From an uncultured virus (IMG/VR IMGVR_UViG_3300011008_000093) (taxonomy: Duplodnaviria; Heunggongvirae; Uroviricota; Caudoviricetes): a stretch of 64,000 nucleotides of DNA. Below, in pieces: positions 3,009-28,491 of this stretch. Numbering within the stretch: the stretch's first letter is position 1; each line of letters begins with the position of its first letter. The notes below the pieces were generated by a model. That model did not search any database. It was not told where the DNA came from and was given only the letters and a program-made list of their open reading frames with translations. The position numbers and the translations under genes were made by a program. The stretch lies in IMG/VR virus record IMGVR_UViG_3300011008_000093, one strand, 5' to 3'.

Positions 3009-3755
3009 TTACCGAGGATTCGGAGCAGGTTGACACATTAATACCGACTCTTTACAAGCATTTATCGCAGCTATTCTGACTTTGCGATCGTCATCCTGAA
3101 GCCCTTTCTCAATTACTTCCAAAGGTACATCTCTGCCTTTACAAGCCCTCATCGCAGCTACTCTGACGTACCAACTACTATCCTGAAGCCCCTTCTCAAT
3201 TACTTCCAAAGGCACGTCTCTGCCTTCACAAGCATTCATCGCAGCTGCTCTGACATCGCAATCGTCATCCTGAAGCCCCTTCTCAATTACTTCCAAAGGC
3301 ACATCTCTGCCTTCACAAGCCCTCATCGCAGCTACTCTGACAGACCAATCGTCATCCTGAAGCCCTTTCTTAATTGCTTCCAGACTTTCATCATATGGGA
3401 TTGTCGACGATGGTACACTACAAACATCAAAATTATCTGAATAATGTGTTGCTAAACAACTTTGTTTGGCGCTTTTCTGATTGTCGGCAATTTCACCGCC
3501 GCAGGCAATGTAACCTGCCGCATCGACAAAACTGTCTTCAGTAGCTGTTCCAGTACGGATCCTGGCAATTTTAAGTAACGTCATCATCATTGACACGTCA
3601 AGAGCGGTAAATTTATGCCCATAATAAGCGCTCCACAGATCGGCAATAATCTGAAAATTGTTTTCCGGACTGCCATAGTCTTGTTCACGCTGTCCACAAA
3701 CACACTTCTTTGCGGTATCAAGAATTTCAGGTCTGTTCATCTTATTAACCTCCAT
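3009..3755 (-). CDS. DUF6378-like domain fused to 4 HEAT-like repeats
   Basis: REQDYGSPENNF..IADLWSAY...LLKIAR...DSFVDAAGY, followed by 29-aa repeats. Confidence 0.8.
   Translation of the reverse strand: MEVNKMNRPEILDTAKKCVCGQREQDYGSPENNFQIIADLWSAYYGHKFTALDVSMMMTLLKIARIRTGTATEDSFVDAAGYIACGGEIADNQKSAKQSCLATHYSDNFDVCSVPSSTIPYDESLEAIKKGLQDDDWSVRVAAMRACEGRDVPLEVIEKGLQDDDCDVRAAAMNACEGRDVPLEVIEKGLQDSSWYVRVAAMRACKGRDVPLEVIEKGLQDDDRKVRIAAINACKESVLMCQPAPNPR
3051..3381 (-). repeat. 87-bp coding tandem repeat (HEAT-like), 4 units
   Basis: Unit DVPLEVIEKGLQDxxxxVRxAAMxACxGR. Confidence 0.9.
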
Positions 3756-3955: not shown

Positions 3956-4867
3956 CTAGCTTTGGAATTTCTTTTCATCCTTTCTTGTCGTCTTGCGTTC
4001 CTCATATTCTTCTTTTTCAATTGGAACCATTTTGTCATTTTCGTCTTCTTTGAAATACCGATTCAGATCGATTTTCAGACCTTCCGGCGTCAAAATATAA
4101 AGGTATGCAATCGTATCGTAGTCCCCACGACCTCCTTCTGTCAGGAACTCTTCTACAAATACTTTATATTGTTTAGCAGAAGGCATATAAGGCATGGAAA
4201 CAGGAAATAACTTATCGATCAATCTTGTAGCAAGTCCGTTGTGAAATTGAGTATTCGGAGATTGAATGTCAACACAAGTGATACGATTAATATCGCTGTA
4301 TGTTGCGGTTCCTTCTGGATTCACTTTTTTAAACAAGGAAGACATCCGCTTATGTTGGTATTCACGATCACCTTTATCATTCCAGGTGATCTCGTTCCAG
4401 GAGTTGTCCGTATCATCAACCGGAGTCAAAGGTTTGCCGTCAATCAAACGATTCAGAACACTTTTGGTCAACTGAATACTGAAACCGCTGTGATTGTCCT
4501 GCATGAGAGTTTGGTACGCCTGGTATGCGCTTTCGTAACAAGCCGCGCCGTATTTCCAGTCATCCGTGCCGTTTGCCGCTTCTTTTTCCGTTGAAATCGC
4601 TAAGTCGATTTCTTTTTTGGCCCAATCATCCGGTTCCTGCTTTTGAATTGAAATCGGCTGAATTTTCAGTTCGTTTCGCATATCATCCATGATAACGTTC
4701 AAAACAGGCATGAGCGCCTGCTTTTCCAGGAACGTGATCTTTCCGGAATTACATCCGTTGATCATATCAGCCTGAAGTCTTTGAATCTCGATAAACTTGT
4801 CATGAGTTGGTGTAATATGAGCAAAGTCATTTAACTTTGCCAGATACTTTTTGAATAGCTTGTTCAT
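3956..4867 (-). CDS. Hypothetical phage protein
   Basis: 303-aa ORF with RBS; HSGFS motif. Confidence 0.7.
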   Translation of the reverse strand: MNKLFKKYLAKLNDFAHITPTHDKFIEIQRLQADMINGCNSGKITFLEKQALMPVLNVIMDDMRNELKIQPISIQKQEPDDWAKKEIDLAISTEKEAANGTDDWKYGAACYESAYQAYQTLMQDNHSGFSIQLTKSVLNRLIDGKPLTPVDDTDNSWNEITWNDKGDREYQHKRMSSLFKKVNPEGTATYSDINRITCVDIQSPNTQFHNGLATRLIDKLFPVSMPYMPSAKQYKVFVEEFLTEGGRGDYDTIAYLYILTPEGLKIDLNRYFKEDENDKMVPIEKEEYEERKTTRKDEKKFQS

Positions 4868-5071
4868 TCTATTTCTCCTTTTTGTAAAATATCACAAACG
4901 CATCAATAAAAGCTGTTCACTATCTTCATTGACTCTTTGAGATTGCAGCCAGGCACGATACTCCAGAATCATCTCACGCCAGGCTTTATCAATGTACTCT
5001 TCTGACAGATAAGCATCAATCAGAGACAGTTTTTCTTTTATGGTCATAAGCCTTGTCCCCCGTTCCAAATA

Positions 5072-6376
5072 TCAATCATAGCTTTCCTGCTTCCCTAACT
5101 CTCGAAGCTGGATAAAAATCGGAAATTGCAAACTAGGCTTTCCGGTTTCCTTATCCCGACTCTCTTCCTTGTACTTAACCTCAATCACTCGATCAATTAA
5201 GTTTTCACGGTCTTCCCAGAATATCATTCTTTGTTCGTCCGTCATGCCGGAGCCAACACGAAGAATGTTGTCCTTATAACGAACTACAAATGCACCAAGC
5301 GTCCCCTTCAGCCGTCCAGACCCTTCTTCAAAGTCGATGATTTGAAGATCTACCGTATAGAACCGCTTTACTTTCAGAATACCACCGTGTCGTTTCCTAT
5401 AATACTTGGTATCCCGATTCAGCATCAGTCCTTCCTTGTCTTCTGCGACCATTTCGTCCAGGCAAATATCAATCATAGATTGATCTGTACCACTATACAG
5501 GATATCCACAACCGCAACAGATTCCAGGTCCAGGAAACTGATCAGATCTGAAAGCTCCTGTAATTTTTCCATTCTGCTTTTGTAAGTTAATCGGCTTTCC
5601 CCCCGAATAAATTCTTCCTTTGGCAAAATATCAAAGATCACAAACTGAATCGAGCTCTTATCGCCGTCATCCTGATTGATGATGCCAGCAGTAATTCTAA
5701 AATTTTCATTGTCTGAAACATTGTCTGTGTTGTTTCGGATCAGCTCCCCATCGAGAACCCACTCTCCAACAATTAAAGCGTGAATATCATCTATGATATG
5801 ATCCAAACCAGTGAATTCTTTGCCCTGACGACCAATTAGTTTTCCTTCAAAGAATGTACCTCTTACACCATTCAGCTTTTGACTCAAACTAAACCATTCA
5901 TTATCATTCAGAGGTACTTTACCGATCTGATACGCCTGCTGGACCTCCCAAATCGGAATCAAATCATATCCAAACGCAGCGTTGACAGTTTTGGCGTCGC
6001 ATCCAAAACGAATGGATTTGGTAATGATGGAAATATAAAAATCCTGTAACTCCGGGTTTTTCCCTTCCAAAAAGAAATACACATTTTCCAACACTTTTTC
6101 GGAACCCGTATGATTGTTACGAATATAATTCATCAGTTCGTGAAAACTGTCGAAGCAGAGCGTTGGCTTTTCTGACTTAGTATTTCGCCCATATTTGTTG
6201 ATTTTTTTCTCTGAAATACCAGTCACAAAGAAAGGATTCAAAAGATAGTCTAAAAATCTTTTTATATTTTGGTCGTCCCGTTTTTCAGCAAGCAGCTTCT
6301 TCTTTTCCAGAATTGATGACGTTTGAGCCAAAATATCAAAGAATTGTTTGACCTCCAGATCGGTGGAGTTTGTCAA
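5072..6376 (-). CDS. ATP-dependent DNA ligase
   Basis: Motif I QKLNGVR, LDGEL, FDIL, EGLM, LKVK, C-terminal OB fold (GSG, LQFPIF). Confidence 0.93.
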   Translation of the reverse strand: MTNSTDLEVKQFFDILAQTSSILEKKKLLAEKRDDQNIKRFLDYLLNPFFVTGISEKKINKYGRNTKSEKPTLCFDSFHELMNYIRNNHTGSEKVLENVYFFLEGKNPELQDFYISIITKSIRFGCDAKTVNAAFGYDLIPIWEVQQAYQIGKVPLNDNEWFSLSQKLNGVRGTFFEGKLIGRQGKEFTGLDHIIDDIHALIVGEWVLDGELIRNNTDNVSDNENFRITAGIINQDDGDKSSIQFVIFDILPKEEFIRGESRLTYKSRMEKLQELSDLISFLDLESVAVVDILYSGTDQSMIDICLDEMVAEDKEGLMLNRDTKYYRKRHGGILKVKRFYTVDLQIIDFEEGSGRLKGTLGAFVVRYKDNILRVGSGMTDEQRMIFWEDRENLIDRVIEVKYKEESRDKETGKPSLQFPIFIQLRELGKQESYD

Positions 6377-6382
6377 TCTCTT

Positions 6383-6778
6383 TCACCTCCATATCTTTTC
6401 CGGATTTTTCCCGCCGGAATTTTTATCCATACATCCCCCGCAGGCAGGACAATATTTATATCTGGGAAACTCCCATGTTTCGACTACAACACCACACTCT
6501 GAGCAATGCCAGTCTTCGTATTCTCGTACTACCGTTCCATCTATAAGGACAGTACAACAGATCTCTCTTCCGGGTATCCACTGTCCATGTTTCACCTCTG
6601 CCACATCGGCGGTAGGAAGCGCTCTTAGAGCATCTATCTCTGCACAGCCACCATAGAGATGGTTCCAATACTCACAATTAGCCTGCCTATACTCCTCCAT
6701 CCGGCCGCATGAATCGCACACAGCTTTTAGAGCCGCCTCCCGGCTAATATACTCGGCCATTTTCATTGCGTTGTCCAT
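6383..6778 (-). CDS. Zn-finger protein (PTADVAEVKHGQW...CSEC...YCPACG)
   Basis: Same family as 26612-26938. Confidence 0.7.
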   Translation of the reverse strand: MDNAMKMAEYISREAALKAVCDSCGRMEEYRQANCEYWNHLYGGCAEIDALRALPTADVAEVKHGQWIPGREICCTVLIDGTVVREYEDWHCSECGVVVETWEFPRYKYCPACGGCMDKNSGGKNPEKIWR

Positions 6779-7998
6779 CCTACAAACTTCCCTTCATTAA
6801 AGTTTTTCTTTTGTTGAAGTGCCTTGCTGATGGCAAGGTCGATACCGGATTTGCTTTTCAGATGATAATACCATAAGTCCGTATAAGGTGTTGTAAGGCG
6901 ATCGATCCGTCCGGATGCCTGAACCGCAACTTTATAAGAGTATTGTTGGGAATAAAATATAATGGTGTCTGTCGTGATACAGTTCCAGCCTTCGCACCCG
7001 GCGGTATACTGAACCAGATAAACCCATCGTTTTCCGGTTGGGATTTCCTGATGTTTCCGTCCGTTCCATTCTGCGATCTCCGTTTCCTTCTCATAAGGCA
7101 GAGACCGGAGAATATCAAGTTCATAATTATGACTGTAGAAGATAATGACCTTGGGATGATCGTTCAGGATCTTCAGCAATGCTGCGGCTCTGGACGGGTC
7201 TTCGTTCACAACACGGCGCAGACCATAACACAACTCTGCTGCCGTTTCGATCGGTTTCTCTTCCCAGGGATTCCAACGGGTCCGCATAATGTCCTTATAT
7301 TTGAACATATCGTAGTCCACAATAACGTTTTCATGGTGGGACACAGTTTGCCGCTTAAAGTCCATGGTGACAAGAATACTGTTCCGCAGACGAATAAGTC
7401 GTCCCGTGTTTCGATAGCTGTCCACCTTCGGATACTTGCCATAGGGATCCCATTTGTAGTTGATGTGTTCGTCAACAAAATGCGTCTTGTTCCGATAGAA
7501 ACCATTGGCTATAAAGACCGGAATATAATCTTCCCATTTGTCTCCGGGCGTTGCGGAAAGAAGGATCCAGTCGTTTGTCCTGGCGATTTTCAGAAAAGCT
7601 TTGGTCCAGGCTCCGTATCCGATGACCCGCTGTTCATCAAATATAAAGAAAGAATTTTTGACTTCCTTGTATTTACCGATGTTGTTCCAGGAATCCACGA
7701 CCACGGTATTATGATAGTAATTTGATTCCGGATGAACGGAGAGGAGGAAAGGCGCTAACTCTCCTCCCCATTCGCAGGTATCCCGCTTTCTGGCTGTTGT
7801 AATGATGTAAAGGTCCTTAGGATCTGTCATGGAAGTATAATCTTCAGAACCAATGGTTCCGCCTTGCAGCTGATAGTAATAGGCCAAAGCTGTTCTGGAT
7901 TTACCACTCCCAACGCCTCCGCATAAAATGCAGCCGTTTTTCATCCGTTTGACAGCGTCGAGCTGGTAATTATAAAGAGATATGCCAGCCATAATCAA
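6763..7998 (-). CDS. Superfamily 2 helicase
   Basis: GGVGSGKS, IFDEQ, LSATP, QASGRIDR. Confidence 0.9.
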   Translation of the reverse strand: MIMAGISLYNYQLDAVKRMKNGCILCGGVGSGKSRTALAYYYQLQGGTIGSEDYTSMTDPKDLYIITTARKRDTCEWGGELAPFLLSVHPESNYYHNTVVVDSWNNIGKYKEVKNSFFIFDEQRVIGYGAWTKAFLKIARTNDWILLSATPGDKWEDYIPVFIANGFYRNKTHFVDEHINYKWDPYGKYPKVDSYRNTGRLIRLRNSILVTMDFKRQTVSHHENVIVDYDMFKYKDIMRTRWNPWEEKPIETAAELCYGLRRVVNEDPSRAAALLKILNDHPKVIIFYSHNYELDILRSLPYEKETEIAEWNGRKHQEIPTGKRWVYLVQYTAGCEGWNCITTDTIIFYSQQYSYKVAVQASGRIDRLTTPYTDLWYYHLKSKSGIDLAISKALQQKKNFNEGKFVGWTTQ

Positions 7999-9200
7999 TA
8001 TTTAAGTGCTTCTTCAAGTGTACAGAAGAAGTGAAAACCAGTAGAGCATTCTTCATTGCTGTAATCGAAATTATCAATTTCGATTATGTCTCCGACATGA
8101 TAGAAAGTTTTTAAATCATATCTGGAAATACCAATTGGTTCATTACGAACAGAACCGAATATATTTGTAATAATAGCTTTATTTGCTCTACATTTACGAT
8201 AATAATCACCGCGGACCTGAGCATCTTTCGGGATAGATGCTTCGACAATAACACCGCAAAGGCACTTCTTATAAACTCGTTCGGGCGGTTCGAATGTCCG
8301 GATTAAAGGCACGTCTCTGCCTTCACAAGCCTTCATCGCGGCTACTCTGACACGCCAATCGCTATCCTGAAGCCCTTTCTCAATTACTTCCAAAGGCACG
8401 TCTCTGCCTTTACAAGCATTCATCGCAGCTGCTCTGACATCGCAATCGCTATCCTGAAGCCCTTTCTCAATTACTTCCAAAGGCACGTCTCTGCCTTCAC
8501 AAGCATTCATCGCGGCTTCTCTGACACACCGATCGTCATCCTGAAGCCATTTCTCAATTACTTCCAAAGGCACGTCTCTGCCTTCACAAGCCCTCATCGC
8601 GGCTGCTCTGACATAGCAATTGTCATCCCGAAGCCATTTCTCAATTACTTCCAAAGGCACGTCTCTGCCTTCACAAGCATTCATCGCGGCTGCTCTGACA
8701 TACCGATCGTCATCCTGAAGCCCTTTCTCAATTACTTCCAAAGGCACGTCTCTGCCTTCACAAGCCCTCATCGCAGCTGCTCTGACATCGCAATCGTCAT
8801 CCTGAAGCCATTTCTCAATTACTTCCAAAGGCACGTCTCTGCCTTCACAAGCCCTCATCGCAGCTGCTCTGACATCGCAATCGTCATCCTGAAGCCCTTT
8901 CTCAATTACTTCCAAAGGCACGTCTCTGCCTTTACAAGCATTCATCGCAGCTGCTCTGACACACCAATCGTCATCCTGAAGCCATTTCTCAATTACTTCC
9001 AAAGGCACGTCTCTGCCTTCACAAGCATTCATCGCGGCTGCTCTGACATACCGATCGTCATCCCGAAGCCCCTTCTCAATTACTTCCAAAGGCACGTCTC
9101 TGCCTTCACAAGCATTCATCGCGGCTTCTCTGACACACCGATCGTCATCCTGAAGCCATTTCTCAATTACGTCGAAACTTATTTTTTGATAAATGCTCAT
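7995..9200 (-). CDS. 10 HEAT-like repeats + C-terminal DUF5758-like domain
   Basis: Repeats followed by YKKC...IPKDA...RKCRANKA...SRYD...YHVG...ECSTGFHFF. Confidence 0.85.
   Translation of the reverse strand: MSIYQKISFDVIEKWLQDDDRCVREAAMNACEGRDVPLEVIEKGLRDDDRYVRAAAMNACEGRDVPLEVIEKWLQDDDWCVRAAAMNACKGRDVPLEVIEKGLQDDDCDVRAAAMRACEGRDVPLEVIEKWLQDDDCDVRAAAMRACEGRDVPLEVIEKGLQDDDRYVRAAAMNACEGRDVPLEVIEKWLRDDNCYVRAAAMRACEGRDVPLEVIEKWLQDDDRCVREAAMNACEGRDVPLEVIEKGLQDSDCDVRAAAMNACKGRDVPLEVIEKGLQDSDWRVRVAAMKACEGRDVPLIRTFEPPERVYKKCLCGVIVEASIPKDAQVRGDYYRKCRANKAIITNIFGSVRNEPIGISRYDLKTFYHVGDIIEIDNFDYSNEECSTGFHFFCTLEEALKY
8305..9170 (-). repeat. 87-bp coding tandem repeat (HEAT-like), 10 units
   Basis: Near-identical nucleotide units ttctcaattacttccaaaggcacgtctctgcctt(c/t)acaagc... 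Confidence 0.95.
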
Positions 9201-9215
9201 ACGTTATTTCCTTTC

Positions 9216-10223
9216 TCAATTTTCATGTTGAAACAGTTTTTCAGACTCCCAAAATAGTCGTCTGAACTGCCAGGTAGGAAAATAATACATTGGTGTGAAC
9301 CAGTAGTTGTCCAGGCTGTCGCCGCTATTCATCGGGTCTGTCAAGGAATCGCCGACCTTAAAATATCCAGCAACACCAAGCAGAGAAAGCTGAATGTAAC
9401 ACATCATTGCAGCCACCTGGTCGATGTCCTGCCCGGTAACAAGAAGAATGTCCTGGTAGTTTCGACCCATTTTTGCGAGTTTTTCTTTAATAACATTTGC
9501 CGCAGCGATCAGCGTAACGCCGCCACCGCAGCAGCAGTCATGAACCGTGATGATGCCTTTTTCTTCGATCTGTTTCTCGACGTCAACAAGCGTAATCTGA
9601 GCCATCAGGTGCGCAATATGATACGGCGTGAAGATTTGCATGTGTTCCTTGCTGTTCAGTCCAAGCTCTGTGTAAATATCACCGAGAAAATCCTGCTCCT
9701 GATTTTCCTCCAGCGCCAGAACAAGATATGCAAACAGCTCCGGAAACAGCATTTGTTCTTCTTTGTTGTATTTGTTGATTGTGCGAAGATAAAGTTCCTC
9801 GCGCTCATCATAATGAGACGAATCCACAGAGTTTGAGATAGCGCAGGCCACCATTGTCACAAAGTCAGTCCAAATATCCCAAGATCGCCAGCGATGAGTC
9901 AGTTCTTTGAAAATGCGCATAAACTCTTTGCGAATTTCTTGGTCTTTTGGATTTGTTGTCGTCTCGGTTTTTAGCGTCTCTGAATCAATAGACTGCTCTT
10001 CATGCGGCGCCGGTAAAATATAAGTCGGCTTTTCATGAATCAATTTGGGCTGTATAACCTGGGCTTCCGATTTCTCCACCGACTTTGTTTTTTGTTTTAC
10101 ATTTCCTTTTGGAAACGGCGGAATCCACTGCTGTGGGCGAGTTTTTGGAACCGCCGGTACTAACTTTTTGACCTGCGATTTCATCTTTTTTCGCGGCTTC
10201 TTCTTGTTGGTCTTATCAAACAT
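9216..10223 (-). CDS. N6-adenine methylase-like protein (SAM-binding part only)
   Basis: QIFTPYHIAHLMA, DCCCGGG, GQDID, GDSL; no NPPY/F motif seen. Confidence 0.7.
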   Translation of the reverse strand: MFDKTNKKKPRKKMKSQVKKLVPAVPKTRPQQWIPPFPKGNVKQKTKSVEKSEAQVIQPKLIHEKPTYILPAPHEEQSIDSETLKTETTTNPKDQEIRKEFMRIFKELTHRWRSWDIWTDFVTMVACAISNSVDSSHYDEREELYLRTINKYNKEEQMLFPELFAYLVLALEENQEQDFLGDIYTELGLNSKEHMQIFTPYHIAHLMAQITLVDVEKQIEEKGIITVHDCCCGGGVTLIAAANVIKEKLAKMGRNYQDILLVTGQDIDQVAAMMCYIQLSLLGVAGYFKVGDSLTDPMNSGDSLDNYWFTPMYYFPTWQFRRLFWESEKLFQHEN

Positions 10224-10248
10224 ATTTTTTTCTCCTTAAAAATATCAA

Positions 10249-10330
10249 TGCCGTCAGCGGGACTCGAACCCGCACGGATAGTTCCGGTGGATTTTAAGTC
10301 CACTATGTCTGCCGATTCCATCATGACGGC
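10249..10330 (-). tRNA. tRNA-Leu(TAA)
   Basis: Acceptor stem GCCGTCA/TGACGGC, anticodon arm GTGGA-CTTAAAA-TCCAC, long variable arm, GGTTCGAGTCC T-arm; CCA not encoded. Confidence 0.93.
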
Positions 10331-10647
10331 TTGTCTTCAATAAAACCTTTTTGAATTTCCACAACAAAACCCTCGTCTGTCAAATTGGCTTTGGGTCCGT
10401 ATATCAACCAGTGCATACCAATCGACTCTTTAGAATGACCCTGTTGACTGTAATATTCAAAAACCCGATCCATGACTGCCGGGGTGACGCAGATTCTGGA
10501 GGGTACAAACTCTATTTGATCACAAATATAACCGAATTTTGCTGCGATCAAATAATACAGATCCAGAATGGTGGTGAAGCATTCCGATTCCGTTACCTCC
10601 ATTTTTATGCTGATAAAACGATCCATTTCCAGAATAGAACCACCCAT
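10321..10647 (-). CDS. Hypothetical protein
   Basis: RBS aaggag; 3' end overlaps the tRNA by 10 nt. Confidence 0.6.
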   Translation of the reverse strand: MGGSILEMDRFISIKMEVTESECFTTILDLYYLIAAKFGYICDQIEFVPSRICVTPAVMDRVFEYYSQQGHSKESIGMHWLIYGPKANLTDEGFVVEIQKGFIEDKPS

Positions 10648-10733
10648 GAAGTTTTTTCTCCTTTCAAAAAATATAAAAGAGGACGCAGGCTTCTCCATAT
10701 AACCAGCGTCCTCTCATTTATAAGTATAAGGTT

Positions 10734-11225
10734 TTACTCCTGAGGATACTCATCTCCGGCATACTTGTCCGCAAACTCGTCTTCGTCAATGACCACATAC
10801 ATGGACCGAAGATAGGCTTTTACACCGCTTTTTTCGTTCTTGGTTCCTTCCTGAATGACCCAGTTATAAGGACGGATGGTCAGATCAACTGTCCGAATTT
10901 CAGCGAAATCCAGGGTGCTGATGCTTTCCTCATCCAGACGAGTTTTCTTTCTTTTCGTGATCATATAAACGGTGGGTGGAATGTTGTCAAAGCTGACTGC
11001 AACCTGAATATAATACCGGGGTTCTTCCCCTTCTTCCCGGGGAGGACGGACCCTCACATTCCAACCGTCGTCGATCAATCTCTGCGCATATTCAGGATCA
11101 TCGATGTAAACGCAGAAGTTCCGCTGACCTTCCCGGTTATACTTGCTTTCCCGTCCGGAGAAGTTCCGGAACAGCAGCCGTGCGTTTTCGATTTTCAGAT
11201 TCTCATTCACTCTCGGATTAGCCAT
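10734..11225 (-). CDS. Putative ssDNA-binding protein
   Basis: FRNFSG...RNFCV...[10 protein letters not shown]...GVKAYL, acidic C-terminus, replication context. Confidence 0.65.
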
Positions 11226-11257
11226 AATTATTATCTCCTTTCGAAATACAAAACAAA

Positions 11258-11476
11258 TTAAAGGCCCTTCTCGCTGAATACCGGATGCCCAACAATAAAT
11301 CGAAGTGCAATATAACCAGTAATAACAGCTGGCACAACATTGATCATTGTAATACCGGCCATGTAGATTCCCGCTGTAGTTTTACTCGTCTTTGCAATCG
11401 CTGCTATGTTTTCGCCGATGTTCGGAGCACGATCACCTACTTGTTTCGCAAAGTTTCCAAAATCGATTTTCAACAT
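11258..11476 (-). CDS. Small membrane protein
   Basis: RBS and hydrophobic C-terminal half. Confidence 0.55.
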
Positions 11477-11499
11477 AACATTTCTCCTTTACACAAAAA

Positions 11500-11528
11500 T
11501 ATAAAGGACCCGTGTTTCCACGAGTCCT
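11500..11528 (-). terminator. Intrinsic terminator with CGTG-GAAA-CACG core
   Basis: GGACTCGTG GAAA CACGGGTCC followed by a T-rich tail on the minus strand. Confidence 0.7.
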
Positions 11529-11534
11529 CCGCTT

Positions 11535-11774
11535 TTATTCGGATCTAAATCCCCTTCCTACAAGATAGTTCTCTGCCTGTTTCGTCTTGGGTTTGACACG
11601 AATAGTCAAGACCCCGACATCCCATTCCCCATAGCCGAACCAGTCTCTCCAGCCTACGAAATCCCGAATACCCAACTGGGTCTCCGGATCAACATAGTCC
11701 AAGCGACAATGGTCGCCCATGAGTTCTGCGATCATCGCGGTAAACTCTGTCTTTGTCATTTCCTTCTTAAACAT
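11535..11774 (-). CDS. Hypothetical protein (motif-headed cassette)
   Basis: RBS ggagg; flanked by the motif and a terminator. Confidence 0.65.
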   Translation of the reverse strand: MFKKEMTKTEFTAMIAELMGDHCRLDYVDPETQLGIRDFVGWRDWFGYGEWDVGVLTIRVKPKTKQAENYLVGRGFRSE

Positions 11775-11803
11775 GATAAATACCTCCGTTATGAAGTAAT
11801 TTT

Positions 11804-11832
11804 CTCCATAACAGAGGTTGCAAAATATGCGG
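11804..11832 (-). promoter_or_regulatory. CGC-N8-CAR-N4-TNTTA motif copy
   Basis: CCGCATATTTTGCAACCTCTGTTATGGAG. Confidence 0.65.
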
Positions 11833-11834
11833 TT

Positions 11835-12104
11835 TTATCTGCCGATCTGCTCGTCAATGTGAGCGCCGATTCGATCAAAGTCCAGATTAAAATATAACAT
11901 GGTGCACATCAAACTGACCCACATTTCACCAATCAAATCTTCCAATTCTTCTTTCGAGCCAGCTTCATCGAGATGTGTCGAATATTCACGAATCTGATAA
12001 GCCAGGTTGAAACATTTGTTGGTTGCAATGAACGGGACCTGAATACCTCCTTCTTCACAGATCCGCTCACAGCGCTCTACAAAATCTTTGTTGTCGTAAC
12101 CCAT
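11835..12104 (-). CDS. Hypothetical protein
   Basis: 89-aa ORF in operon orientation. Confidence 0.55.
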   Translation of the reverse strand: MGYDNKDFVERCERICEEGGIQVPFIATNKCFNLAYQIREYSTHLDEAGSKEELEDLIGEMWVSLMCTMLYFNLDFDRIGAHIDEQIGR

Positions 12105-18023: not shown

Positions 18024-18986
18024 TCAATACTGATGTGTCGCAAGATCGCTGGTGATGTCGCCGACGGTATTAAAGTCCAGAATAAACCCTTCGATATAAT
18101 CTCCGCCATACTCAGATTCCATCTCTCTGCGGACTTCAAAAATTCCGAAATCCACAAAATTGTCCCCCTTGGGATTCTTAATATCATAAATCCACCCGAC
18201 TACCTGACCATAGTCCGTCAGGGGGAATCCCAACATCTCATATACATCATTCAGGAACAGATGCCCCCGCGCCCGAAGCTTATCGTTGGCCTGAGACTGA
18301 AGTGCTTTGAGATAAAACCGGGACTGCTCCGGATCCTTCATCCATGCCCGATTGGCTTCATCAAAATATCTTGCATAGGGACTGTGATCAGAAGGATCCC
18401 ATCCGGCAGCACCATAATTCTTAACTTCTTTAACTTTCTTTTCCTTGCCTTCTTCATCCACCATCGTAGACTTGACTTCCTTGGCTTTGATGTTATAGCG
18501 AAGCTCTTTTTCCACCTGTTCGCCGAATTTCTCCACCACACGATCACGATAGTCTTTGAAGGACTTGTCCAAAGTCGTGTAAGCTGCCGCGATAGCAATG
18601 TTTCGTTTTTTTAAAATATGATGACTAGCCAAAATGGACGTGATGGATGCGGCGCCAAGAAGAGCTGCCGGCGCATACAACTTCAGATACTTCACCGTCG
18701 TCTTGACATAAACGATAGTCAGATCTTTCTTGTTGTCTTCCTGGGTATAGGTTTCTCCGGCCTTGGTGACACCGGCTTCTGAAGCTTCATGAATCTCGTT
18801 CAGGCTTTCCTTTGCTTCTTCCGCAATCGCGCCGGCTTTTGTAGTTGCTTTGCAGGCCATTACGGTGCTGACAACCACTCCGATCACACCCGTCACAACC
18901 AGAATTTCCGGGCTCCTTTTCTGAATTTTAAAACCGACCTTGTTCAAAGCAAGACCGGCGGATTTTACAAGTTCTTTTCCTTTCAT
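18024..18986 (-). CDS. DUF6353-like protein (paralogue 1)
   Basis: SPEIL..G..G....VMACKAT...YAPA...AAAY...LFLNDVYEMLG...VGW. Confidence 0.75.
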   Translation of the reverse strand: MKGKELVKSAGLALNKVGFKIQKRSPEILVVTGVIGVVVSTVMACKATTKAGAIAEEAKESLNEIHEASEAGVTKAGETYTQEDNKKDLTIVYVKTTVKYLKLYAPAALLGAASITSILASHHILKKRNIAIAAAYTTLDKSFKDYRDRVVEKFGEQVEKELRYNIKAKEVKSTMVDEEGKEKKVKEVKNYGAAGWDPSDHSPYARYFDEANRAWMKDPEQSRFYLKALQSQANDKLRARGHLFLNDVYEMLGFPLTDYGQVVGWIYDIKNPKGDNFVDFGIFEVRREMESEYGGDYIEGFILDFNTVGDITSDLATHQY

Positions 18987-20204: not shown

Positions 20205-20969
20205 TCAGCATTTGAGATATCGCGGCGGGTTGTTATGGCCCAAAACCAGGTAAGGAACGCCTTCAACCAGTAGAGAGGTAAAATATAAATCGATATAACC
20301 GTTGTCGATCCTCCAGCCAAGGGTTTCTCCAATGGATGCGTCCGTATCATCCAATCCAATCTCTTCAAAAAACTCGTTCAGAGTGATATAGTCCTCTTCC
20401 CGCAGTTTCTTGTTCAGATTATTTTCCGCTTTTCGTAAGGTTTCCATGTCTGAATCGAACTTTCGCTTAGTCAGATAATCATAACAAGGAACCTCTCCTT
20501 TTCCTGTATGAATCATGGGCATTGTCAGTGCATGCTCTGTTTCAAAGTGCTCTTTTGCAATAGAGTCCCGGATTTCTTGTTCCTTTTTGTTTCCGACGAC
20601 TTCTAATGTTTTCTTTTTATAATCCGTCAAGTCCTGAACGGAAATGGCATAGGCAGCAGCAAGCGCTGCATTTCGCCTCAGATTGATAGAACTTGCCCCA
20701 ACAATACAGGCTATGGAACAGACCCCTGTAACAGCAGAGGGAACATAGCATTTCCACGTTACGGCAATTACTTCTTTTTTGGTCAATCGATGATTGTCTT
20801 TGATCTCTTTTTCATCAATCAGCTGCAACGCTTTTGGTGTTGCTTTGACCGCTGTAACAGTCGCCGCAATCATCCCTGCAATCCCTAAACCGGTTAGGAT
20901 CTCAGGCGTATGCTCTTTAAAAATCTTTGGTACATGTCTGCACACATCTGCAAATAACTGTTTGTTCAA
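20205..20969 (-). CDS. DUF6353-like protein (paralogue 2)
   Basis: TPEILTGLGIAG..AVKATPKA...WKCYVP...TLNEFFEEIGL...LGW; TTG start after RBS. Confidence 0.75.
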   Translation of the reverse strand: MNKQLFADVCRHVPKIFKEHTPEILTGLGIAGMIAATVTAVKATPKALQLIDEKEIKDNHRLTKKEVIAVTWKCYVPSAVTGVCSIACIVGASSINLRRNAALAAAYAISVQDLTDYKKKTLEVVGNKKEQEIRDSIAKEHFETEHALTMPMIHTGKGEVPCYDYLTKRKFDSDMETLRKAENNLNKKLREEDYITLNEFFEEIGLDDTDASIGETLGWRIDNGYIDLYFTSLLVEGVPYLVLGHNNPPRYLKC

Positions 20970-21150
20970 ATCTTTTCTCCTTTCCAGAATTGTTATTCTG
21001 ATTCCATAGGGGCAAGCCATTCAAAAACCGATTAACCAGACTGATATGAGGCAAAATATAATCCGCAATGAAACCACCGATCAGCAGGACAGTCATAATA
21101 CCAAGCGTAATACCCAGAGTTATCAGACCCGAAGCCAACAAATCCCCCAT
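20917..21150 (-). CDS. Small membrane protein
   Basis: Hydrophobic N-terminal helix; RBS. Confidence 0.5.
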   Translation of the reverse strand: MGDLLASGLITLGITLGIMTVLLIGGFIADYILPHISLVNRFLNGLPLWNQNNNSGKEKRFEQTVICRCVQTCTKDF

Positions 21151-22089: not shown

Positions 22090-22887
22090 TCAGTCTTCTA
22101 TCGGTTCCATCGTCGGTGGATAAAGCATCTCAATTACCCAACATTCAATAGGCTCACGATCCGGACCGTCATCGACCAGATGTTTTGTATGGGTAAAATC
22201 AATGAAATAATAATTCTCACATACAAACCAATTAAGCCCTTTTAGATCATCCGGCGTTTCAATACCAAGAGCATCATAGAACGTCTCTATGGAAGTTTCA
22301 CCGCCGTTGTTCGCGAATACTCGGTTGGTATGAATTTCTGCCAGAAGAACATCAGCAAAACTTGCATCAAAATATTGTCTGGAGAAAGTATCATAGAACA
22401 GATGCTTTTCGCCGTTTTCATCTTCAAAATCGGTTCTTTGACCGGATGTCGTATCGTAATACGCTGATGGTTCCGGATGTTGGACTAAAATATCATTCAC
22501 GACTCGGTCATAACCGTCTTTTCCAAAGACGTTCTTAACCGATTTTTTATATTCCCGAATTGAACGTTCCAGAAATGCGCAGGTTGCAACCAAAGATGCT
22601 TGCTGATGACGATTCAAAAGATTAGAGCCAAAAATGCACCCGATTGTAGCCATTCCAGCGATTCCTGCCGGGGTGTAGGTCCTCCAGGAAGCTGCTATCG
22701 TCTCCAGAGGGGTAATTTCTTCACCTTTTTCAGCCATTTTTGCTTCTTTTGCCGCATTTACCCGGTCTAATGCCTTTGGTGCTGCTCTTGCAGTCAGAAC
22801 TCCCGTGACTACAACACCGGCTGCTCCAACGCAGGAAAGAATGGTTGGTACGGCGTTTTTCAGAGATTTCAAAAATCTTTGCTGCAT
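22090..22887 (-). CDS. DUF6353-like protein (paralogue 3)
   Basis: PTILSCVGAAG..TARAAPKA...WRTYTPA...LFYDTFSRQYF...FYDALGI. Confidence 0.72.
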   Translation of the reverse strand: MQQRFLKSLKNAVPTILSCVGAAGVVVTGVLTARAAPKALDRVNAAKEAKMAEKGEEITPLETIAASWRTYTPAGIAGMATIGCIFGSNLLNRHQQASLVATCAFLERSIREYKKSVKNVFGKDGYDRVVNDILVQHPEPSAYYDTTSGQRTDFEDENGEKHLFYDTFSRQYFDASFADVLLAEIHTNRVFANNGGETSIETFYDALGIETPDDLKGLNWFVCENYYFIDFTHTKHLVDDGPDREPIECWVIEMLYPPTMEPIED

Positions 22888-23283: not shown

Positions 23284-23904
23284 TTAAATATACAGATACT
23301 TATTGCTGCTTTCACAAAAATACGTTGTGCCATAAGGATATAAATAATAGGTTCGGTAAACCGAACCCTGAGAAAAGTTTGCCTGAAATACCACGGAACC
23401 AGGCATATCGTCCCGCCCCTCCAGAACCGCCAAAGCTGCTTCCACGCATTCTCGACGTGGTATCAACGTGTTGATAGCCCCGCAAATTGCCGGATAATAC
23501 TGACCGGCCTGAAATATCACATCGTGAATGGTGTTCGGGAACTCCGGGGAGGCTACCCGATGCATAACTACTTCGCCAACATCCATTCGCCACTCCTGGG
23601 AAATTCCGTCCGAACCCGCTTCTCCCTGGATCAGTCTCGACAACAGGTCCAGTTCGTCATAGTTGATCGGAATATAATTCAGACCATTCTCAAGAATCTT
23701 ATTATTTCGCATTTCTTCAGCCCAGTGGCCGGTTTCAAAATTCCGATTCACCACAGAATCGATCATAATTTCCATATAATTTACGTCATCCGGACTGTCT
23801 GCAAATACTGTGGAAGAACACAAATAAATCACACACAGCGCCAAAATGAAAGACAAAACCCCGAGGACAACCTTAGTGAAAGTATCATAGTAATGTTTTT
23901 TCAT
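23284..23904 (-). CDS. SleB-like cell wall hydrolase (Hydrolase_2)
   Basis: N-terminal TM/signal; LSRLIQGEAG, VGEVVMHRV..PEFPNTIHDVIFQAGQY. Confidence 0.85.
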   Translation of the reverse strand: MKKHYYDTFTKVVLGVLSFILALCVIYLCSSTVFADSPDDVNYMEIMIDSVVNRNFETGHWAEEMRNNKILENGLNYIPINYDELDLLSRLIQGEAGSDGISQEWRMDVGEVVMHRVASPEFPNTIHDVIFQAGQYYPAICGAINTLIPRRECVEAALAVLEGRDDMPGSVVFQANFSQGSVYRTYYLYPYGTTYFCESSNKYLYI

Positions 23905-24884
23905 ACTGCAATTTTCTCCTCATACATTTGCTCCAAATTAATACCATACCGTTCCTTCAGCACGGTCTCCAGCTCGCTGAAGGATTTCCGCCCAAAATTC
24001 CGAAATCGAAACAGGCCGTTAGGACCTTGTTCTGCAATAAAATCCAAAATATCTTTAACTGTGTAAAGGTCGGCACGCCGTAAACAGTTATCAGTCCGAA
24101 CAGACAAGTTCAACTCTTCAATCGGAATGGATACGTTACGAAAGCTTTGAACTGTTGTGGCTGTTTCTCGCTTTAAATTAGCCAGAATATCAGTCTGTTT
24201 TTCGATTTGTGCCTGTAGTTGATTCAGTTTTTCTGTCATTTCCTCAAGAGTTTTTCCCTCTTTCAAGAGACAGACTTTGGATGGATGACGCAGTTTTCTA
24301 ATCGCCTTTGCCTCAATCTGACGGATTCGCTCTCGGGTAACACGAAACTGCGCCGCAATTTCGTTCAATGTACAGCAGTCACGAAAATGAGCGTAGACAA
24401 CGAATTGCTCTCGGTCCGTCAAAGTCCGAATCATGGACTCCAGTGCAGCTTCTTTGTCCGGCGTGATGATCCAGTCGATTGGCTCCTGGCAGATCCATCC
24501 CACCAGATTGTATGGCCATGGAGACTCATAATCATCCCCGATAACATGTCTAAGGCCTTTATCTGCAAACACCGCTTTCTGCAGCGCGTCTTCATGAGCC
24601 GAACGCCGAAGTTTTTGGAACGTGGAATGATAATCCCGAAGGATATCTTCCGCAGTCTGTTGATCGCACCGTCCAAATATAAAGTCCAAAGGAACAGCAA
24701 AGAAATCGGCAAAAGCAATTATCGTATCCAGACTCGGATTTACTCTTCCCATCAAATAACCAGTAATGTTTGACGCGCTCATGTTCAAACAGTCCGCAAG
24801 TCTGCGTGGACCGATTTGAGCCTCTTCCATAAGGGCTTTCAAAGGCTCGGGATTGAAACGAAAAATATTTTGTTTTCTTGCCAT
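23901..24884 (-). CDS. XRE HTH - sigma70 region 4 - RNAP alpha-CTD fusion protein
   Basis: XRE helix set ending PSLDTIIAFADFFAVPLDFIFGR; LTDREQ...TLNEIA..F.VTRERIRQIEAKAIRKLRHP; IEELNLSVRTDNCLRRA...RNFGRKS. Confidence 0.85.
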   Translation of the reverse strand: MARKQNIFRFNPEPLKALMEEAQIGPRRLADCLNMSASNITGYLMGRVNPSLDTIIAFADFFAVPLDFIFGRCDQQTAEDILRDYHSTFQKLRRSAHEDALQKAVFADKGLRHVIGDDYESPWPYNLVGWICQEPIDWIITPDKEAALESMIRTLTDREQFVVYAHFRDCCTLNEIAAQFRVTRERIRQIEAKAIRKLRHPSKVCLLKEGKTLEEMTEKLNQLQAQIEKQTDILANLKRETATTVQSFRNVSIPIEELNLSVRTDNCLRRADLYTVKDILDFIAEQGPNGLFRFRNFGRKSFSELETVLKERYGINLEQMYEEKIAV

Positions 24885-26169: not shown

Positions 26170-26625
26170 TTAGCCATCCACGTCACCCGCTTTCATTCTG
26201 TCTTCCCAAATGCAAAGTGCATTGTCTATAATGCTGATTTCCAACTCGTCATGTGGTCCGAGGTCGATATAGCCGCCGTTAAGCTGATTACGGATGTTTT
26301 TAAGGGCATCCCGGATTGAGCAAGTATCCTTGTCCACTTCCTCTTTACGCTGGCCCCGTGAACAATAGTCATCCTTGGTTCTGTATCTGATTCCCGATTC
26401 TCCCGTTAGGCATCGTGCAAGCCCCTCACAGGAAACTCTTTCTTTGTTCCAGAATATACACTCCCGACACCGCACCACAGGGACGGCATCAATGGTAGGA
26501 GCCACATTTAGCCTGTTTACGAACGAAATTGCACTTGGCACAGTATCTTGCATATCTGCCGTTGGAATTATCCCGATTTCGTCTATGATCTGGTCTTTCA
26601 ACTCATCAACATCAATTAGCCTCAT
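26170..26625 (-). CDS. Zn-finger paralogue
   Basis: MRLIDVD...APTIDAVPVVRCREC...DDYCSRG. Confidence 0.75.
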   Translation of the reverse strand: MRLIDVDELKDQIIDEIGIIPTADMQDTVPSAISFVNRLNVAPTIDAVPVVRCRECIFWNKERVSCEGLARCLTGESGIRYRTKDDYCSRGQRKEEVDKDTCSIRDALKNIRNQLNGGYIDLGPHDELEISIIDNALCIWEDRMKAGDVDG

Positions 26626-26938
26626 TGTGTTCCTCCTCTCTGCGCCCGTCCATGCGAGCGCCGCAGTTGGGGCAGTAGTTAAATTCGGCTAGCCTCACAA
26701 CGCAAAAGGAACATTCGCTACACGACATAAACGATTTCCCAAACTCTATTTGCCACTCCCCATGCACCACCTCCACCGCGTCCACGGCGGGGATGGAATC
26801 AATTTCATCGATGGCTTCATATGCATCGATCAGCGTCATGCCGCCCTCTTCGTTCCCCCACATTTTACCGTCAACACATTGGGCCTCTACGCTAGCCATT
26901 GCGTCTTTCCGCCGGATCAGATCATCCATCCCGCTCAT
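26612..26938 (-). CDS. Zn-finger paralogue
   Basis: DLIRR...PAVDAVEVVHGEW...CSEC...YCPNCGARM. Confidence 0.75.
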   Translation of the reverse strand: MSGMDDLIRRKDAMASVEAQCVDGKMWGNEEGGMTLIDAYEAIDEIDSIPAVDAVEVVHGEWQIEFGKSFMSCSECSFCVVRLAEFNYCPNCGARMDGRREEEHNEAN

Positions 26939-27272
26939 GCCCCGCCTCCTCTCTGCGCTGGCCGTTCGAGCAGTAGCCATCACCATCGACAAAAATCATT
27001 CCGTCATCACTAGTTGGATGTACATGGTCAAAACCCGCAAAGCAAACCAGAACGCCGTCACAAGCTACGGATTCATCACGAAATGCCTTATTCGGCTGTC
27101 TGCTATATCGGCACTTTCGGCAACGAACCACAGGGACGGCATCAATGGTTGGAGCGTTTTCGACAACAGCTTCTATCGCGGTGTTCCATCCGACCATGTA
27201 ACTCCATTCTTCTTCGCCTGCCACGTCAACAAACCTATGAGCAAGCAATTCATCTGCATCAATCAGCCGCAT
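26922..27272 (-). CDS. Zn-finger paralogue
   Basis: MRLIDAD...APTIDAVPVVRCRKC...GYCSNGQR. Confidence 0.75.
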   Translation of the reverse strand: MRLIDADELLAHRFVDVAGEEEWSYMVGWNTAIEAVVENAPTIDAVPVVRCRKCRYSRQPNKAFRDESVACDGVLVCFAGFDHVHPTSDDGMIFVDGDGYCSNGQRREEAGHERDG

Positions 27273-28248
27273 TGTGTTCCTCCTCTCTGCGCTGGCCATT
27301 GGCACAAAACCAATTATCCCTCGGCCTCCACGAATACCACCCATCGTTGCACTGGCCGGGGCAGATTTCATCTGGAAATTCCAACGCAAATCCAGTTTCT
27401 TCACCGTTCTCTCCAAGCATAGCCCTGTGAATGCAATCCTTACACCGCACCACCTCCACCATTCTGCCTTTACAAGCATTCATCGCGGCTTCTCTGACAG
27501 ACCAATCGCTATCCTGAAGCCCCTTCTCAATTACTTCCAAAGGCACGTCTCTGCCTTTACAAGCATTCATCGCGGCTTCTCTGACATGCCAATCGCTATC
27601 CTGAAGCCCCTTCTCAATTACTTCCAAAGGCACGTCTCTGCCTTCACAAGCATTCATCGCAGCTGCTCTGACATAGCAATCGTTATCCTGAAGCCCCTTC
27701 TCAATTACTTCCAAAGGCACGTCTCTGCCTTCACAAGCCCTCATCGCGGCTGCTCTGACATAGCAATCGTTATCCTGAAGCCCCTTCTCAATTACTTCCA
27801 AAGGCACGTCTCTGCCTTCACAAGCCCTCATCGCGGCTTCTCTGACATGCCAATCGCTATCCTGAAGCCCCTTCTCAATTACTTCCAAAGGCACGTCTCT
27901 GCCTTCACAAGCATCCATCGCAGCTGCTCTGACATAGCAATCGTTATCCTGAAGCCCCTTCTCAATTACTTCCAAAGGCACATCTCTGCCTTCACAAGCA
28001 TTCATCGCAGCTTCTCTGACAGACCAATCGTCATCCCGAAGCCCTTTCTCAATTACTTCCAAAGGCACGTCTCTGCCTTTACAAGCCCTCATCGCGGCTT
28101 CTCTGACACGCCAACTACTATCCTGAAGCCCTTTCTCAATTACTTCCAAAGGCACGTCTCTGCCTTCACAAACCTTCATCGCGGCTTCTCTGACATTGCA
28201 ATCGTTATCCTGAAGCCCCTTCTCAATTACATACAGACTGTTTTTCAT
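27259..28248 (-). CDS. 9 HEAT-like repeats fused to a Zn-finger-family C-terminus
   Basis: Repeats followed by VEVVRCKDC...NWFCANGQR; RBS ggagg before MKNSLY. Confidence 0.85.
   Translation of the reverse strand: MKNSLYVIEKGLQDNDCNVREAAMKVCEGRDVPLEVIEKGLQDSSWRVREAAMRACKGRDVPLEVIEKGLRDDDWSVREAAMNACEGRDVPLEVIEKGLQDNDCYVRAAAMDACEGRDVPLEVIEKGLQDSDWHVREAAMRACEGRDVPLEVIEKGLQDNDCYVRAAAMRACEGRDVPLEVIEKGLQDNDCYVRAAAMNACEGRDVPLEVIEKGLQDSDWHVREAAMNACKGRDVPLEVIEKGLQDSDWSVREAAMNACKGRMVEVVRCKDCIHRAMLGENGEETGFALEFPDEICPGQCNDGWYSWRPRDNWFCANGQRREEEHNAAD
27462..28230 (-). repeat. 87-bp coding tandem repeat (HEAT-like), 9 units
   Basis: Same nucleotide unit as 3051-3381 and 8305-9170. Confidence 0.95.
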
Positions 28249-28365
28249 GATGCATACCTCCAAAAAAAAATAAAAAAGTGCAGGCAAACATACACCCTCT
28301 TCGTAAAAGAATTTGCAAAATCTGCGGAAAAGAAAAGACCCCGTGTTTCCACGGAGCCTTCTCAA

Positions 28366-28491
28366 CTAGTTGGGATACAACTCCCTTGCCGTGCGAATCA
28401 ACTCCACCCTTTGCTCATGATCCGCTTCGCCGAAACCATGTTCGCGAAGCCACATCAGAGCTTCAAATGAAAGCAGTTCTTTGTCATTCAT
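28366..28491 (-). CDS. Small hypothetical protein (cassette)
   Basis: RBS ggagg overlapping the motif end; terminator downstream. Confidence 0.6.
   Translation of the reverse strand: MNDKELLSFEALMWLREHGFGEADHEQRVELIRTARELYPN

Follow-up and report, generated by a model that had tools for sequence, protein, structure and literature searches.

Homogenised HEAT units of a temperate phage differ at a few fixed positions that form a putative ligand-contact surface

In the uncultured virus record IMGVR_UViG_3300011008_000093 (IMG/VR; Caudoviricetes), one gene, here called gene B, consists mainly of a tandem array of 87-nucleotide (nt) units that code for HEAT repeats and are followed by a DUF5758 domain. 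The units are near-identical in DNA, and where they differ, they differ at the same few codons. The window analyzed here is the whole 64,000-nt stretch of this record. An original prediction, made from the DNA letters, had compared the pattern to the diresidue code of transcription activator-like effector (TALE) and pentatricopeptide repeat (PPR) proteins, and had attributed it to diversifying selection plus shuffling on one binding surface. Our analysis favors a modular surface that binds a ligand and on which selection maintains diversity among the units, and the variable positions are probably its ligand contacts.

Tandem Repeats Finder (TRF) placed the 10.0 copies of the gene B array, which show 92% matches, at 8305-9177; it also identified two further arrays of 87-nt units at 3050-3382 and 27463-28230, which belong to genes A and C, respectively. 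All three arrays lie in minus-strand open reading frames (ORFs), and their units belong to the Pfam families HEAT_2/HEAT. For gene B, HEAT_2 (PF13646) scored 100.2 bits (cutoff 27.7) and HEAT (PF02985) scored 74.1 (cutoff 23.5); DUF5758 (PF19062) scored 44.1 bits with the whole protein and 48.1 bits with the domain alone (cutoff 26.9). The residues of the 29-aa unit are numbered D1-V-P-L-E-V-I-E-K-G10-L-Q12-D-D14-D15-x16-x17-V-R-x20-A-A-M-x24-A-C-x27-G-R29, exactly as in the original prediction. In gene B, unit 1 is a degenerate N-terminal cap, and the diresidues at positions 16-17 are, in order, RC, RY, WC, CD, CD, RY, CY, RC, CD and WR. Those of gene A are WS, CD, WY and RK; those of gene C are CN, WR, WS, CY, WH, CY, CY, WH and WS. 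All eleven diresidues that had been listed for the interval 8305..9170 do occur in this phage, but only RC, RY, WC, CD, CY and WR are located within that interval, whereas WS, WH, WY, CN and RK come from genes A and C. Likewise, Ile at position 20, Asp at position 24, and ND and SS at positions 14-15 were listed for the same interval and belong to the paralogous arrays.

The original list had pooled the 23 units of the three genes. Once four end units (A1, A4, B1 and C1) are dropped, 19 internal units with 20 segregating nucleotide sites are left. All amino-acid differences among them fall in nine codons, 10, 12, 14, 15, 16, 17, 20, 24 and 27, and the confinement to fixed positions is thus borne out; purely synonymous polymorphism is present in codons 1, 9 and 21. 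In simulations, 15 nonsynonymous segregating sites placed randomly hit nine or fewer of the 29 codons with P = 0.0015. Gene B has nine variable codons and gene C has eight; eight are common to both (hypergeometric 2e-6, a value that overstates the evidence because arrays B and C are not independent). The positions at which the units are kept unlike are chiefly 16-17, then 10, 20, 24 and 27, and 12, 14 and 15 in the loop.

The units are also reshuffled. As proteins, 19 of 19 internal units are distinct, and in the four-gamete test all four combinations occur for 53 of the 136 pairings of biallelic sites; the alleles have therefore either recombined or arisen recurrently, and they recur in new combinations, as had been noticed by eye. 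The distance between units of genes B and C (0.090) is about the same as those within gene B (0.078) and within gene C (0.082), and for several units the closest match is a unit of another gene, which indicates that the three arrays draw on one pool of units. The scaffold is held constant, and recombination between the units keeps their DNA alike.

The same positions vary in other genomes. Our search of 5.8 billion proteins returned ∼71 clusters (90% identity; P0001-P0071) that combine HEAT repeats with DUF5758. These proteins are 225-440 aa in length and mostly contain four or five units of 29 or 30 aa (163 and 94 spacings, respectively). The only names given to them in this search are 'DUF5758 domain-containing protein' (Bacteroides sp., Petrimonas sulfuriphila) and 'HEAT repeat protein' (Porphyromonas gulae); the entry from Phage sp. 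ctGns7, A0A8S5S8Q0, is a 'HEAT repeat domain-containing protein'. They share the architecture and the variable positions of gene B; different from the window, with its ten-unit array, six diresidues and two extra arrays, most of them have two unit types. Scanning of 185,579 species, one genome each, identified 24 HEAT-DUF5758 loci in Oscillospiraceae, Ruminococcus and other Clostridia, several Bacteroidota and Saccharibacteria. Ranked by within-protein variability in 42 other family proteins with 106 internal units, the leading positions are 17, 16, 10, 20, 14, 15, 29, 27, 24 and 12; all nine window positions are in this top ten (area under the curve 0.98).

From 11 proteins, 25 pairs of near-identical units were compared. 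Nine of these proteins show differences at positions 16 and 17 and 6 at position 10, whereas each of the other positions differs in three at most; homogenisation thus wipes out all but these sites. At the DNA level, five prophage loci have at least two usable internal units with a period of 29 (L009, L010, L013, L014 and L016). They are reported apart, because the pooled statistics of six loci were skewed by L012 (52% unit identity) and by one mis-registered unit. In the five loci, DNA identity between units is 93-98.5%, and only one locus has any synonymous differences. Four loci are dimorphic (CD versus W-R/H) at codons 16-17, and two loci are dimorphic at codon 10. For the residues in question, codon use is lineage-specific: TGC or TGT for Cys, GAT or GAC for Asp, and CGC or AGA for Arg (CGT in the window). 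CD (24) and WR (16) are the commonest diresidues in the 106 units of the relatives and a long tail follows, most units being CD or W-x. Both CD and W-x are present in 28 of 70 proteins, W-x only in 33, CD only in 2 and neither in 7. The diresidue alphabet is thus small and conserved across the relatives, and the variation is less open-ended than had been claimed. Positions 10 and 16 show no association, whether within a unit or between adjacent units (Fisher p 0.09-1.0), nor are the types of neighboring units associated with each other (p 0.21).

Constraint on the unit is very uneven. The Nei-Gojobori method, applied to all pairs of units, gives a ratio of nonsynonymous to synonymous divergence (dN/dS) of 0.98 when whole units are compared, and of 1.67 among the units of gene B. 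Across the 20 codons of the scaffold, dN is 0 at a dS of ∼0.1, whereas dN/dS is 3.6-8.3 for the nine variable codons, a class that was picked after the fact. To avoid this circularity, we redefined the variable sites from the 42 other family proteins. At the top nine sites of the family, the corresponding polymorphism ratio (pN/pS) of the 19 window units is 2.9 (codon-bootstrap 95% 1.25-13.6; 0.5% of the bootstraps at or below 1); for gene B alone, it is 4.7 (1.7-26.7). The comparison agrees with the original prediction as far as scaffold constraint and excess at the variable codons are concerned. Diversifying selection on the variable positions is supported but not proven: the units are few, short, related and recombining, and the excess by segregating sites is small.

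To locate the variable positions in space, the gene B protein was modeled with AlphaFold2 (AF2; mean predicted local distance difference test score (pLDDT) 92.9, predicted template modelling score 0.82). The model contains 21 helices in residues 3-291, a short N-terminal helix (residues 3-6) and ten A/B pairs; each unit is of helix-loop-helix fold in the model, unit positions 4-11 making up helix A and 16-25 making up helix B. Positions 16/17, 20 and 24 form one i, i+4, i+8 stripe on the modeled helix B, opposite the hydrophobic positions 18, 21, 22, 25 and 26. Positions 10, 12, 14 and 15 belong to the last part of helix A and to the loop that precedes 16-17.

Both sequence and fold resemble alphaRep, an artificial family of HEAT-like binders. 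AlphaRep and PP2A-A HEAT proteins were the top Foldseek matches of the model, and 16 of the 17 matches to sequences of solved structures are artificial alphaRep proteins or their fusions (best 4zv6, E 6e-21). Both alphaRep and its source, the natural HEAT-like repeats of the PBS-lyase/Mth187 type, share the two-helix unit and the D-x-D-x-x-V-R-x-x-A-A core with the phage units. According to the alphaRep report, positions 18, 19, 22, 23, 26 and 30 were randomised following natural variability, and the concave faces that carry them make the contacts in alphaRep complexes (PMC3754942). In the HMMER alignments, unit positions 16, 17, 20 and 24 match columns in which the alphaRep binders are unlike one another, and position 27 lies beside a two-residue gap near alphaRep position 30. 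Positions 16, 17, 20, 24 and 27 thus correspond to alphaRep 18, 19, 22, 26 and roughly 30, and five of the six randomised positions described there coincide; the alignment suggests the predicted likeness to the alphaRep binding face for these five and not for 10, 12, 14 and 15, which are extra toggles of the phage units. Some other features differ as well. The unit is 29 aa here (29 or 30 in relatives) and 31 aa in alphaRep; position 21, the counterpart of alphaRep 23, is invariant; and the commonest residue at alphaRep position 18, proline, is replaced by Trp, Cys or Arg. The phage units are natural, near-identical in DNA and fused to DUF5758, whereas alphaRep is artificial.

These observations suggest how the protein may work. 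The gene B product would be a rod-like α-solenoid of ten alphaRep-like HEAT units joined to the conserved viral DUF5758 domain. Since the probably exposed stripe is diverse from unit to unit, it suggests a modular contact surface; the stripe would contact the ligand as in alphaRep binders, the order of unit types would set what is bound, and DUF5758 would be the constant working or anchoring part. The evidence fits an early viral domain that stays constant and bears an exchangeable solenoid; besides DUF5758, DUF6378 (gene A) and a Cys-rich tail (gene C) would play this constant part in the present phage. As gene B lies in an early replication module, the likely ligand would be a host or phage protein met early in infection, during host takeover or counter-defence. 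The artificial alphaRep binders were randomised at matching positions, and phages appear to do likewise naturally, with homogenised units that keep a few diresidues and recombine into new orders on at least three partner domains in one genome. If the stripe is indeed a contact surface, the family would show that a HEAT scaffold can have modular specificity in nature, would help to find the function of DUF5758 in its HEAT-bearing and other members, and would possibly supply ready-made binder scaffolds.

Several points weigh against a ligand-contact surface. The dN/dS and pN/pS values come from 19 short, recombining and non-independent units, and the bootstrap interval given above is wide. By hand count of segregating sites, the variable codons have ∼15 changes per 22.6 nonsynonymous sites versus 2-3 per 4.4 synonymous sites, which is a small excess. 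Most relatives use little more than two kinds of diresidue, CD and W-x, and some of their units are identical; a small, conserved alphabet or two structural solutions would explain this better than would a surface shaped by an open-ended arms race. The toggles 10, 12, 14 and 15 are outside the set of randomised alphaRep positions, and the exposure of the variable sites was deduced from helical periodicity and from the alphaRep alignment. In addition, the order and number of units in the window rest on one assembly, only single units being confirmed in sequencing runs, and several related arrays of draft genomes are gapped or collapsed (an N run in L011 at 4257-5113, a truncated unit in L015 at 4275-4862).

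A serious rival, although a rather doubtful one, is that the dimorphism is purely structural or near-neutral: the exposed positions would be unconstrained, CD and W-x would be equally stable starts of helix B, and the array would simply be a rod for DUF5758. Throughout the natural alphaRep-like family, variability is found at the exposed positions of helix 2 (PMC3754942), which fits such a lack of constraint. So do the two unit types and occasional identical units of the relatives, the small excess by segregating sites, and the replacement of HEAT by unrelated solenoids ahead of DUF5758, as expected if any rod suffices. However, arrays homogenised to the degree seen in the prophage loci would lose a neutral dimorphism, and it was kept in four of the five, with differing codons for identical residues. 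Moreover, at independently defined sites pN/pS is 2.9-4.7, with at most 0.5% of the bootstraps at or below 1; all 19 internal window units are different; and the G/W exchange at position 10 is non-conservative and yet recurs in 6 of the 11 proteins with near-identical units. If the dimorphism were merely structural, gene B would encode an ordinary repeat protein.

The analogy to TALE and PPR proteins was considered next to these readings. TALE repeats are 33-35-aa units with a repeat-variable diresidue at positions 12-13, and their genes consist of near-identical DNA units that differ at a di-codon. Such a code on HEAT units, in which the diresidue of each unit would recognise a single element of a linear target, be it single-stranded DNA or RNA or else an extended peptide, as in TALE, PUF or PPR repeats, seems unlikely to us. 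The alphabet of such a programmable HEAT protein, itself an unlikely one, would be CD, W-R/H/Y/S and R-x at positions 16-17, with a second toggle at position 10, and shuffling would re-spell the target. The genetic architecture is TALE-like indeed: near-identical, homogenised DNA repeats differ at a di-codon in the inter-helix turn, at the boundary of loop and helix; the alphabet is small and reused; and the length of the array is variable. Also in line with a code, the alphabet is kept across prophages of Bacillota and Bacteroidota with lineage-specific codons and in orders that differ between proteins, the toggles are independent of one another, and gene B is located among replication genes with conserved synteny. 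In addition, Trp, Tyr, His, Arg, Cys, Asp, Asn and Ser can stack on bases or read base edges. The resemblance does not extend beyond this architecture. The 29-aa unit is shorter than a TALE repeat, extra variable sites run along helix B, and no Pfam match to TAL_effector was found in the array genes at E ≤ 0.01; PPR and PUF likewise had no Pfam match in these genes, and no such chains were present among the sequence matches to solved structures. The nearest solved relatives, alphaRep, bind proteins via the matching face. Three acidic residues directly precede the diresidue, and the 290 aa of the gene B array carry a net charge of -25; these surroundings, different from those of TALE repeats, argue against a nucleic-acid ligand. 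DUF5758 also pairs with pentapeptide, leucine-rich repeat (LRR) and MORN arrays that have no such diresidue, and many relatives have only one to three units, too few for sequence-specific reading. Were such a code true, it would be a TALE/PUF-like system on a HEAT scaffold, acting in phage replication or host takeover.

The acidity of the array could also point to a polyanionic decoy that imitates DNA in an anti-restriction-like manner, as Qnr/MfpA-type pentapeptide proteins do. The sister architecture with pentapeptide repeats and the nearby N6_Mtase-like and Tad3-domain genes agree with such mimicry, but the N-terminal charge of the relatives has a median of only -1.9 per 100 aa in 58 HEAT-type proteins and -2.4 in 27 pentapeptide-type proteins. 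The strong acidity is therefore not a trait of the family, which weakens the idea of mimicry that had been read into it, and unit-specific toggles of Trp, Cys and Arg would be unneeded in a decoy; we regard mimicry as very improbable. It is harder still to believe that the pattern is an artefact of short-read chimeras between the three arrays, or the product of a targeted mutator such as a diversity-generating retroelement. The array is not covered end to end by any public contig, and arrays of this type in draft genomes contain gaps and broken units. P0001, encoded on a 67-kb contig, lacks units 3-6 and 9 of gene B and is otherwise identical to it (256 of 256 residues); either whole units were lost or gained in nature, or the assembly collapsed. 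Single unit variants, however, occur as exact short contigs in the runs, and the positional pattern recurs in the 42 other proteins and in isolate genomes. As for a retroelement, no reverse-transcriptase domain was detected in the 49 larger ORFs of the window (E ≤ 1e-5) or in the three array genes, the smaller ORFs being unscanned, and the changes include G/T, C/T, C/A/T and A/G, so they are not adenine-specific.

The assembly itself was checked in public data. Three public runs from one sample and one study contain the stretch, all as contigs; no RNA run is listed among them. The array is present there only as pieces of 44-92 nt, none of which spans it, which is why unit order and number depend on one assembly. 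Our scan of metagenome contigs gave five short contigs of one metagenome, and the 67-kb contig was absent among them. As the loci L011 and L015 illustrate, arrays of the HEAT-DUF5758 type are often mis-assembled.

We also analyzed the DUF5758 domain, which is common to gene B and a much wider group of proteins. The AF2 model of the domain alone has a pLDDT of 94.9. Cys313 is invariant among the HEAT-type relatives, and Cys337, His390 and Cys393 are at least 90% conserved; judged from this conservation, the four residues could be a metal site, and the last Cys is not kept in three pentapeptide-type members. Foldseek found no clear counterpart of the domain among solved structures (best E 0.76), and VIA-align against 48,161 chains gave a best Z of 3.0, with small β-barrel, Sm or Tudor-like rows of which none was outstanding. 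For the modeled domain, therefore, no known fold can be named, and the searches do not show that the fold is new. A comparison of the family profile with a single T4 RIIB sequence by hhalign gave a probability of 1% over 20 columns, around a C-S-x-G-x-H motif, a likeness at motif level only, and RIIB is absent from the top 50 matches of DUF5758 in BFVD. No publication on DUF5758 was found by full-text literature search; in the partly accessible literature on phage HEAT repeats, anti-defense, hypervariability and PBS lyase HEAT-like repeats, we found nothing on the HEAT-DUF5758 family.

DUF5758 is a widespread viral early-gene domain fused to swappable solenoids, namely pentapeptide, HEAT, decapeptide, LRR and MORN. 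The domain search returned 1446 cluster representatives at E ≤ 1e-3, and in all 150 matches listed, the domain is C-terminal and ends within ∼60 residues of the end of the protein. Among the best 140 new proteins, the accompanying domains are Pentapeptide (43), HEAT (25), Decapeptide (15), DUF285 (4) and LRR_5, a BspA-type LRR (2). In BFVD, the fold is present in many viral proteins, including giant-virus fusions with MORN, pentapeptide and RING, and one gut-phage HEAT protein matches the DUF5758 model at a TM score of 0.93. The DUF5758 part matches 155 of 50,697 phage records, 152 of them Mycobacterium phages in which the proteins are annotated as pentapeptide repeat proteins; the HEAT part of gene B matches none of the 155. 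Examples are gp59 of Mycobacterium phage 244, gp54 of Traaww1 and EVB67_031 of Rhizobium phage RHph_TM3_3_14B. Like gene B, these phage proteins have a solenoid of variable length ahead of the same C-terminal domain (34-37% identity); different from the HEAT solenoid of gene B, it is a pentapeptide β-helix. In two annotated examples, from Mycobacterium and Rhizobium phages, the gene is located just after the repressor region, which is an early-operon position.

The features of the three array genes and of the two genes next to gene B are collected in Table 1. The start of gene C was set at the ATG of MKNSLY; the listed ORF extends further upstream from a TTG.

Table 1. Array genes of the window, their parts, and the genes that flank gene B
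Feature	Position	Strand	Basis	Relation to gene B
Gene B, 401-aa protein, HEAT_2 array and DUF5758	7995..9200	minus	ORF, Pfam, AF2	
Gene B, ten 29-aa units (residues 6-295)	8316..9185	minus	TRF, translation	
Gene B, linker and DUF5758 domain (residues 296-401), β-rich	7998..8315	minus	Pfam	
Gene A, 248 aa: N-terminal DUF6378, then 4 units (3045-3392)	3009..3755	minus	ORF, Pfam	
Gene C, 331 aa from first ATG: 9 units (27463-28245) and Cys-rich tail of ∼65 aa	27259..28254	minus	ORF, Pfam	
Helicase-like gene	6763..7998	minus		directly downstream; start overlaps gene B stop by 4 nt
N6_Mtase-like gene	9216..10223	minus	Pfam	directly upstream

The window covers the greater part of a temperate, siphovirus-like gut phage or prophage, 45% in G+C and with nearly all genes on the minus strand; it contains genes for integrase, tape measure, portal, terminase and lysins and an early replication block. 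The Pfam scan around gene B identified genes for single-stranded DNA-binding protein, primase-like, methyltransferase (MTase)-like, helicase-like, ligase and Tad3-domain proteins, from which we infer that gene B is inside the early replication module of a temperate phage. Relatives of the helicase-like gene adjoin the HEAT-DUF5758 gene in L009, L011 and L028, and one database protein (P0074) was called across both genes; relatives of the N6_Mtase-like gene lie upstream in L009, L011, L025 and L028. The order MTase-like/HEAT-DUF5758/helicase-like recurs in Oscillospiraceae prophages, and the host group of the phage is probably Oscillospiraceae. Among viruses, megablast of 5000-12000 against the 50,697 phage records gave no match, and a viral-contig search for loci related to gene B gave no matching pattern. 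A 303-aa protein (3956-4867, minus strand) contains the Pfam domain of Tad3, a type I Thoeris inhibitor (E 1.5e-26); as its gene lies between gene A and the DNA ligase gene, it places an anti-defence gene within the same early block.

Near gene C, there are small Cys-rich, zinc-ribbon-like ORFs at 26612-26992 and 26922-27479, with another at 6383-6778 (minus strand). The two downstream of gene C share its C-terminal '...C-x-N-G-Q-R-R-E-E' end motif with 8 of 10 identities, so gene C may, by this sequence likeness, consist of an array fused to one of these Cys-rich proteins. Treating the gene C tail and the neighboring ORFs as one family was rejected, because the likeness is confined to the extreme end and is too weak. 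One 398-aa ORF (27274-28470, plus strand) runs antisense across the gene C array; it is open because the repeat has no stops in that frame, and it is almost certainly not a gene.

Some minor observations were made elsewhere. Two metagenome contigs (L001, 1-2189; L002, 112-1699) contain two or three tandem HEAT-DUF5758 genes with 30-aa units, which are followed in L002 by a TnpB/OrfB-like ORF at 1836-2939. In the window, a 327-aa protein (23901-24884, minus strand) combines HTH_3, Sigma70 region 4 and the RNA polymerase alpha C-terminal domain, which is an unusual fusion for a phage transcription factor, and three DUF6353 paralogues are located near each other at 18024-18986, 20205-21020 and 22090-22887 (minus strand). 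A 189-nt tandem repeat of 2.3 copies (48708-49134) lies at the end of a 1327-aa tail gene; it is directly abutted by the sole N run of the window (24 bases, 49142-49165), where the repeat has probably led to a gap in the scaffold.

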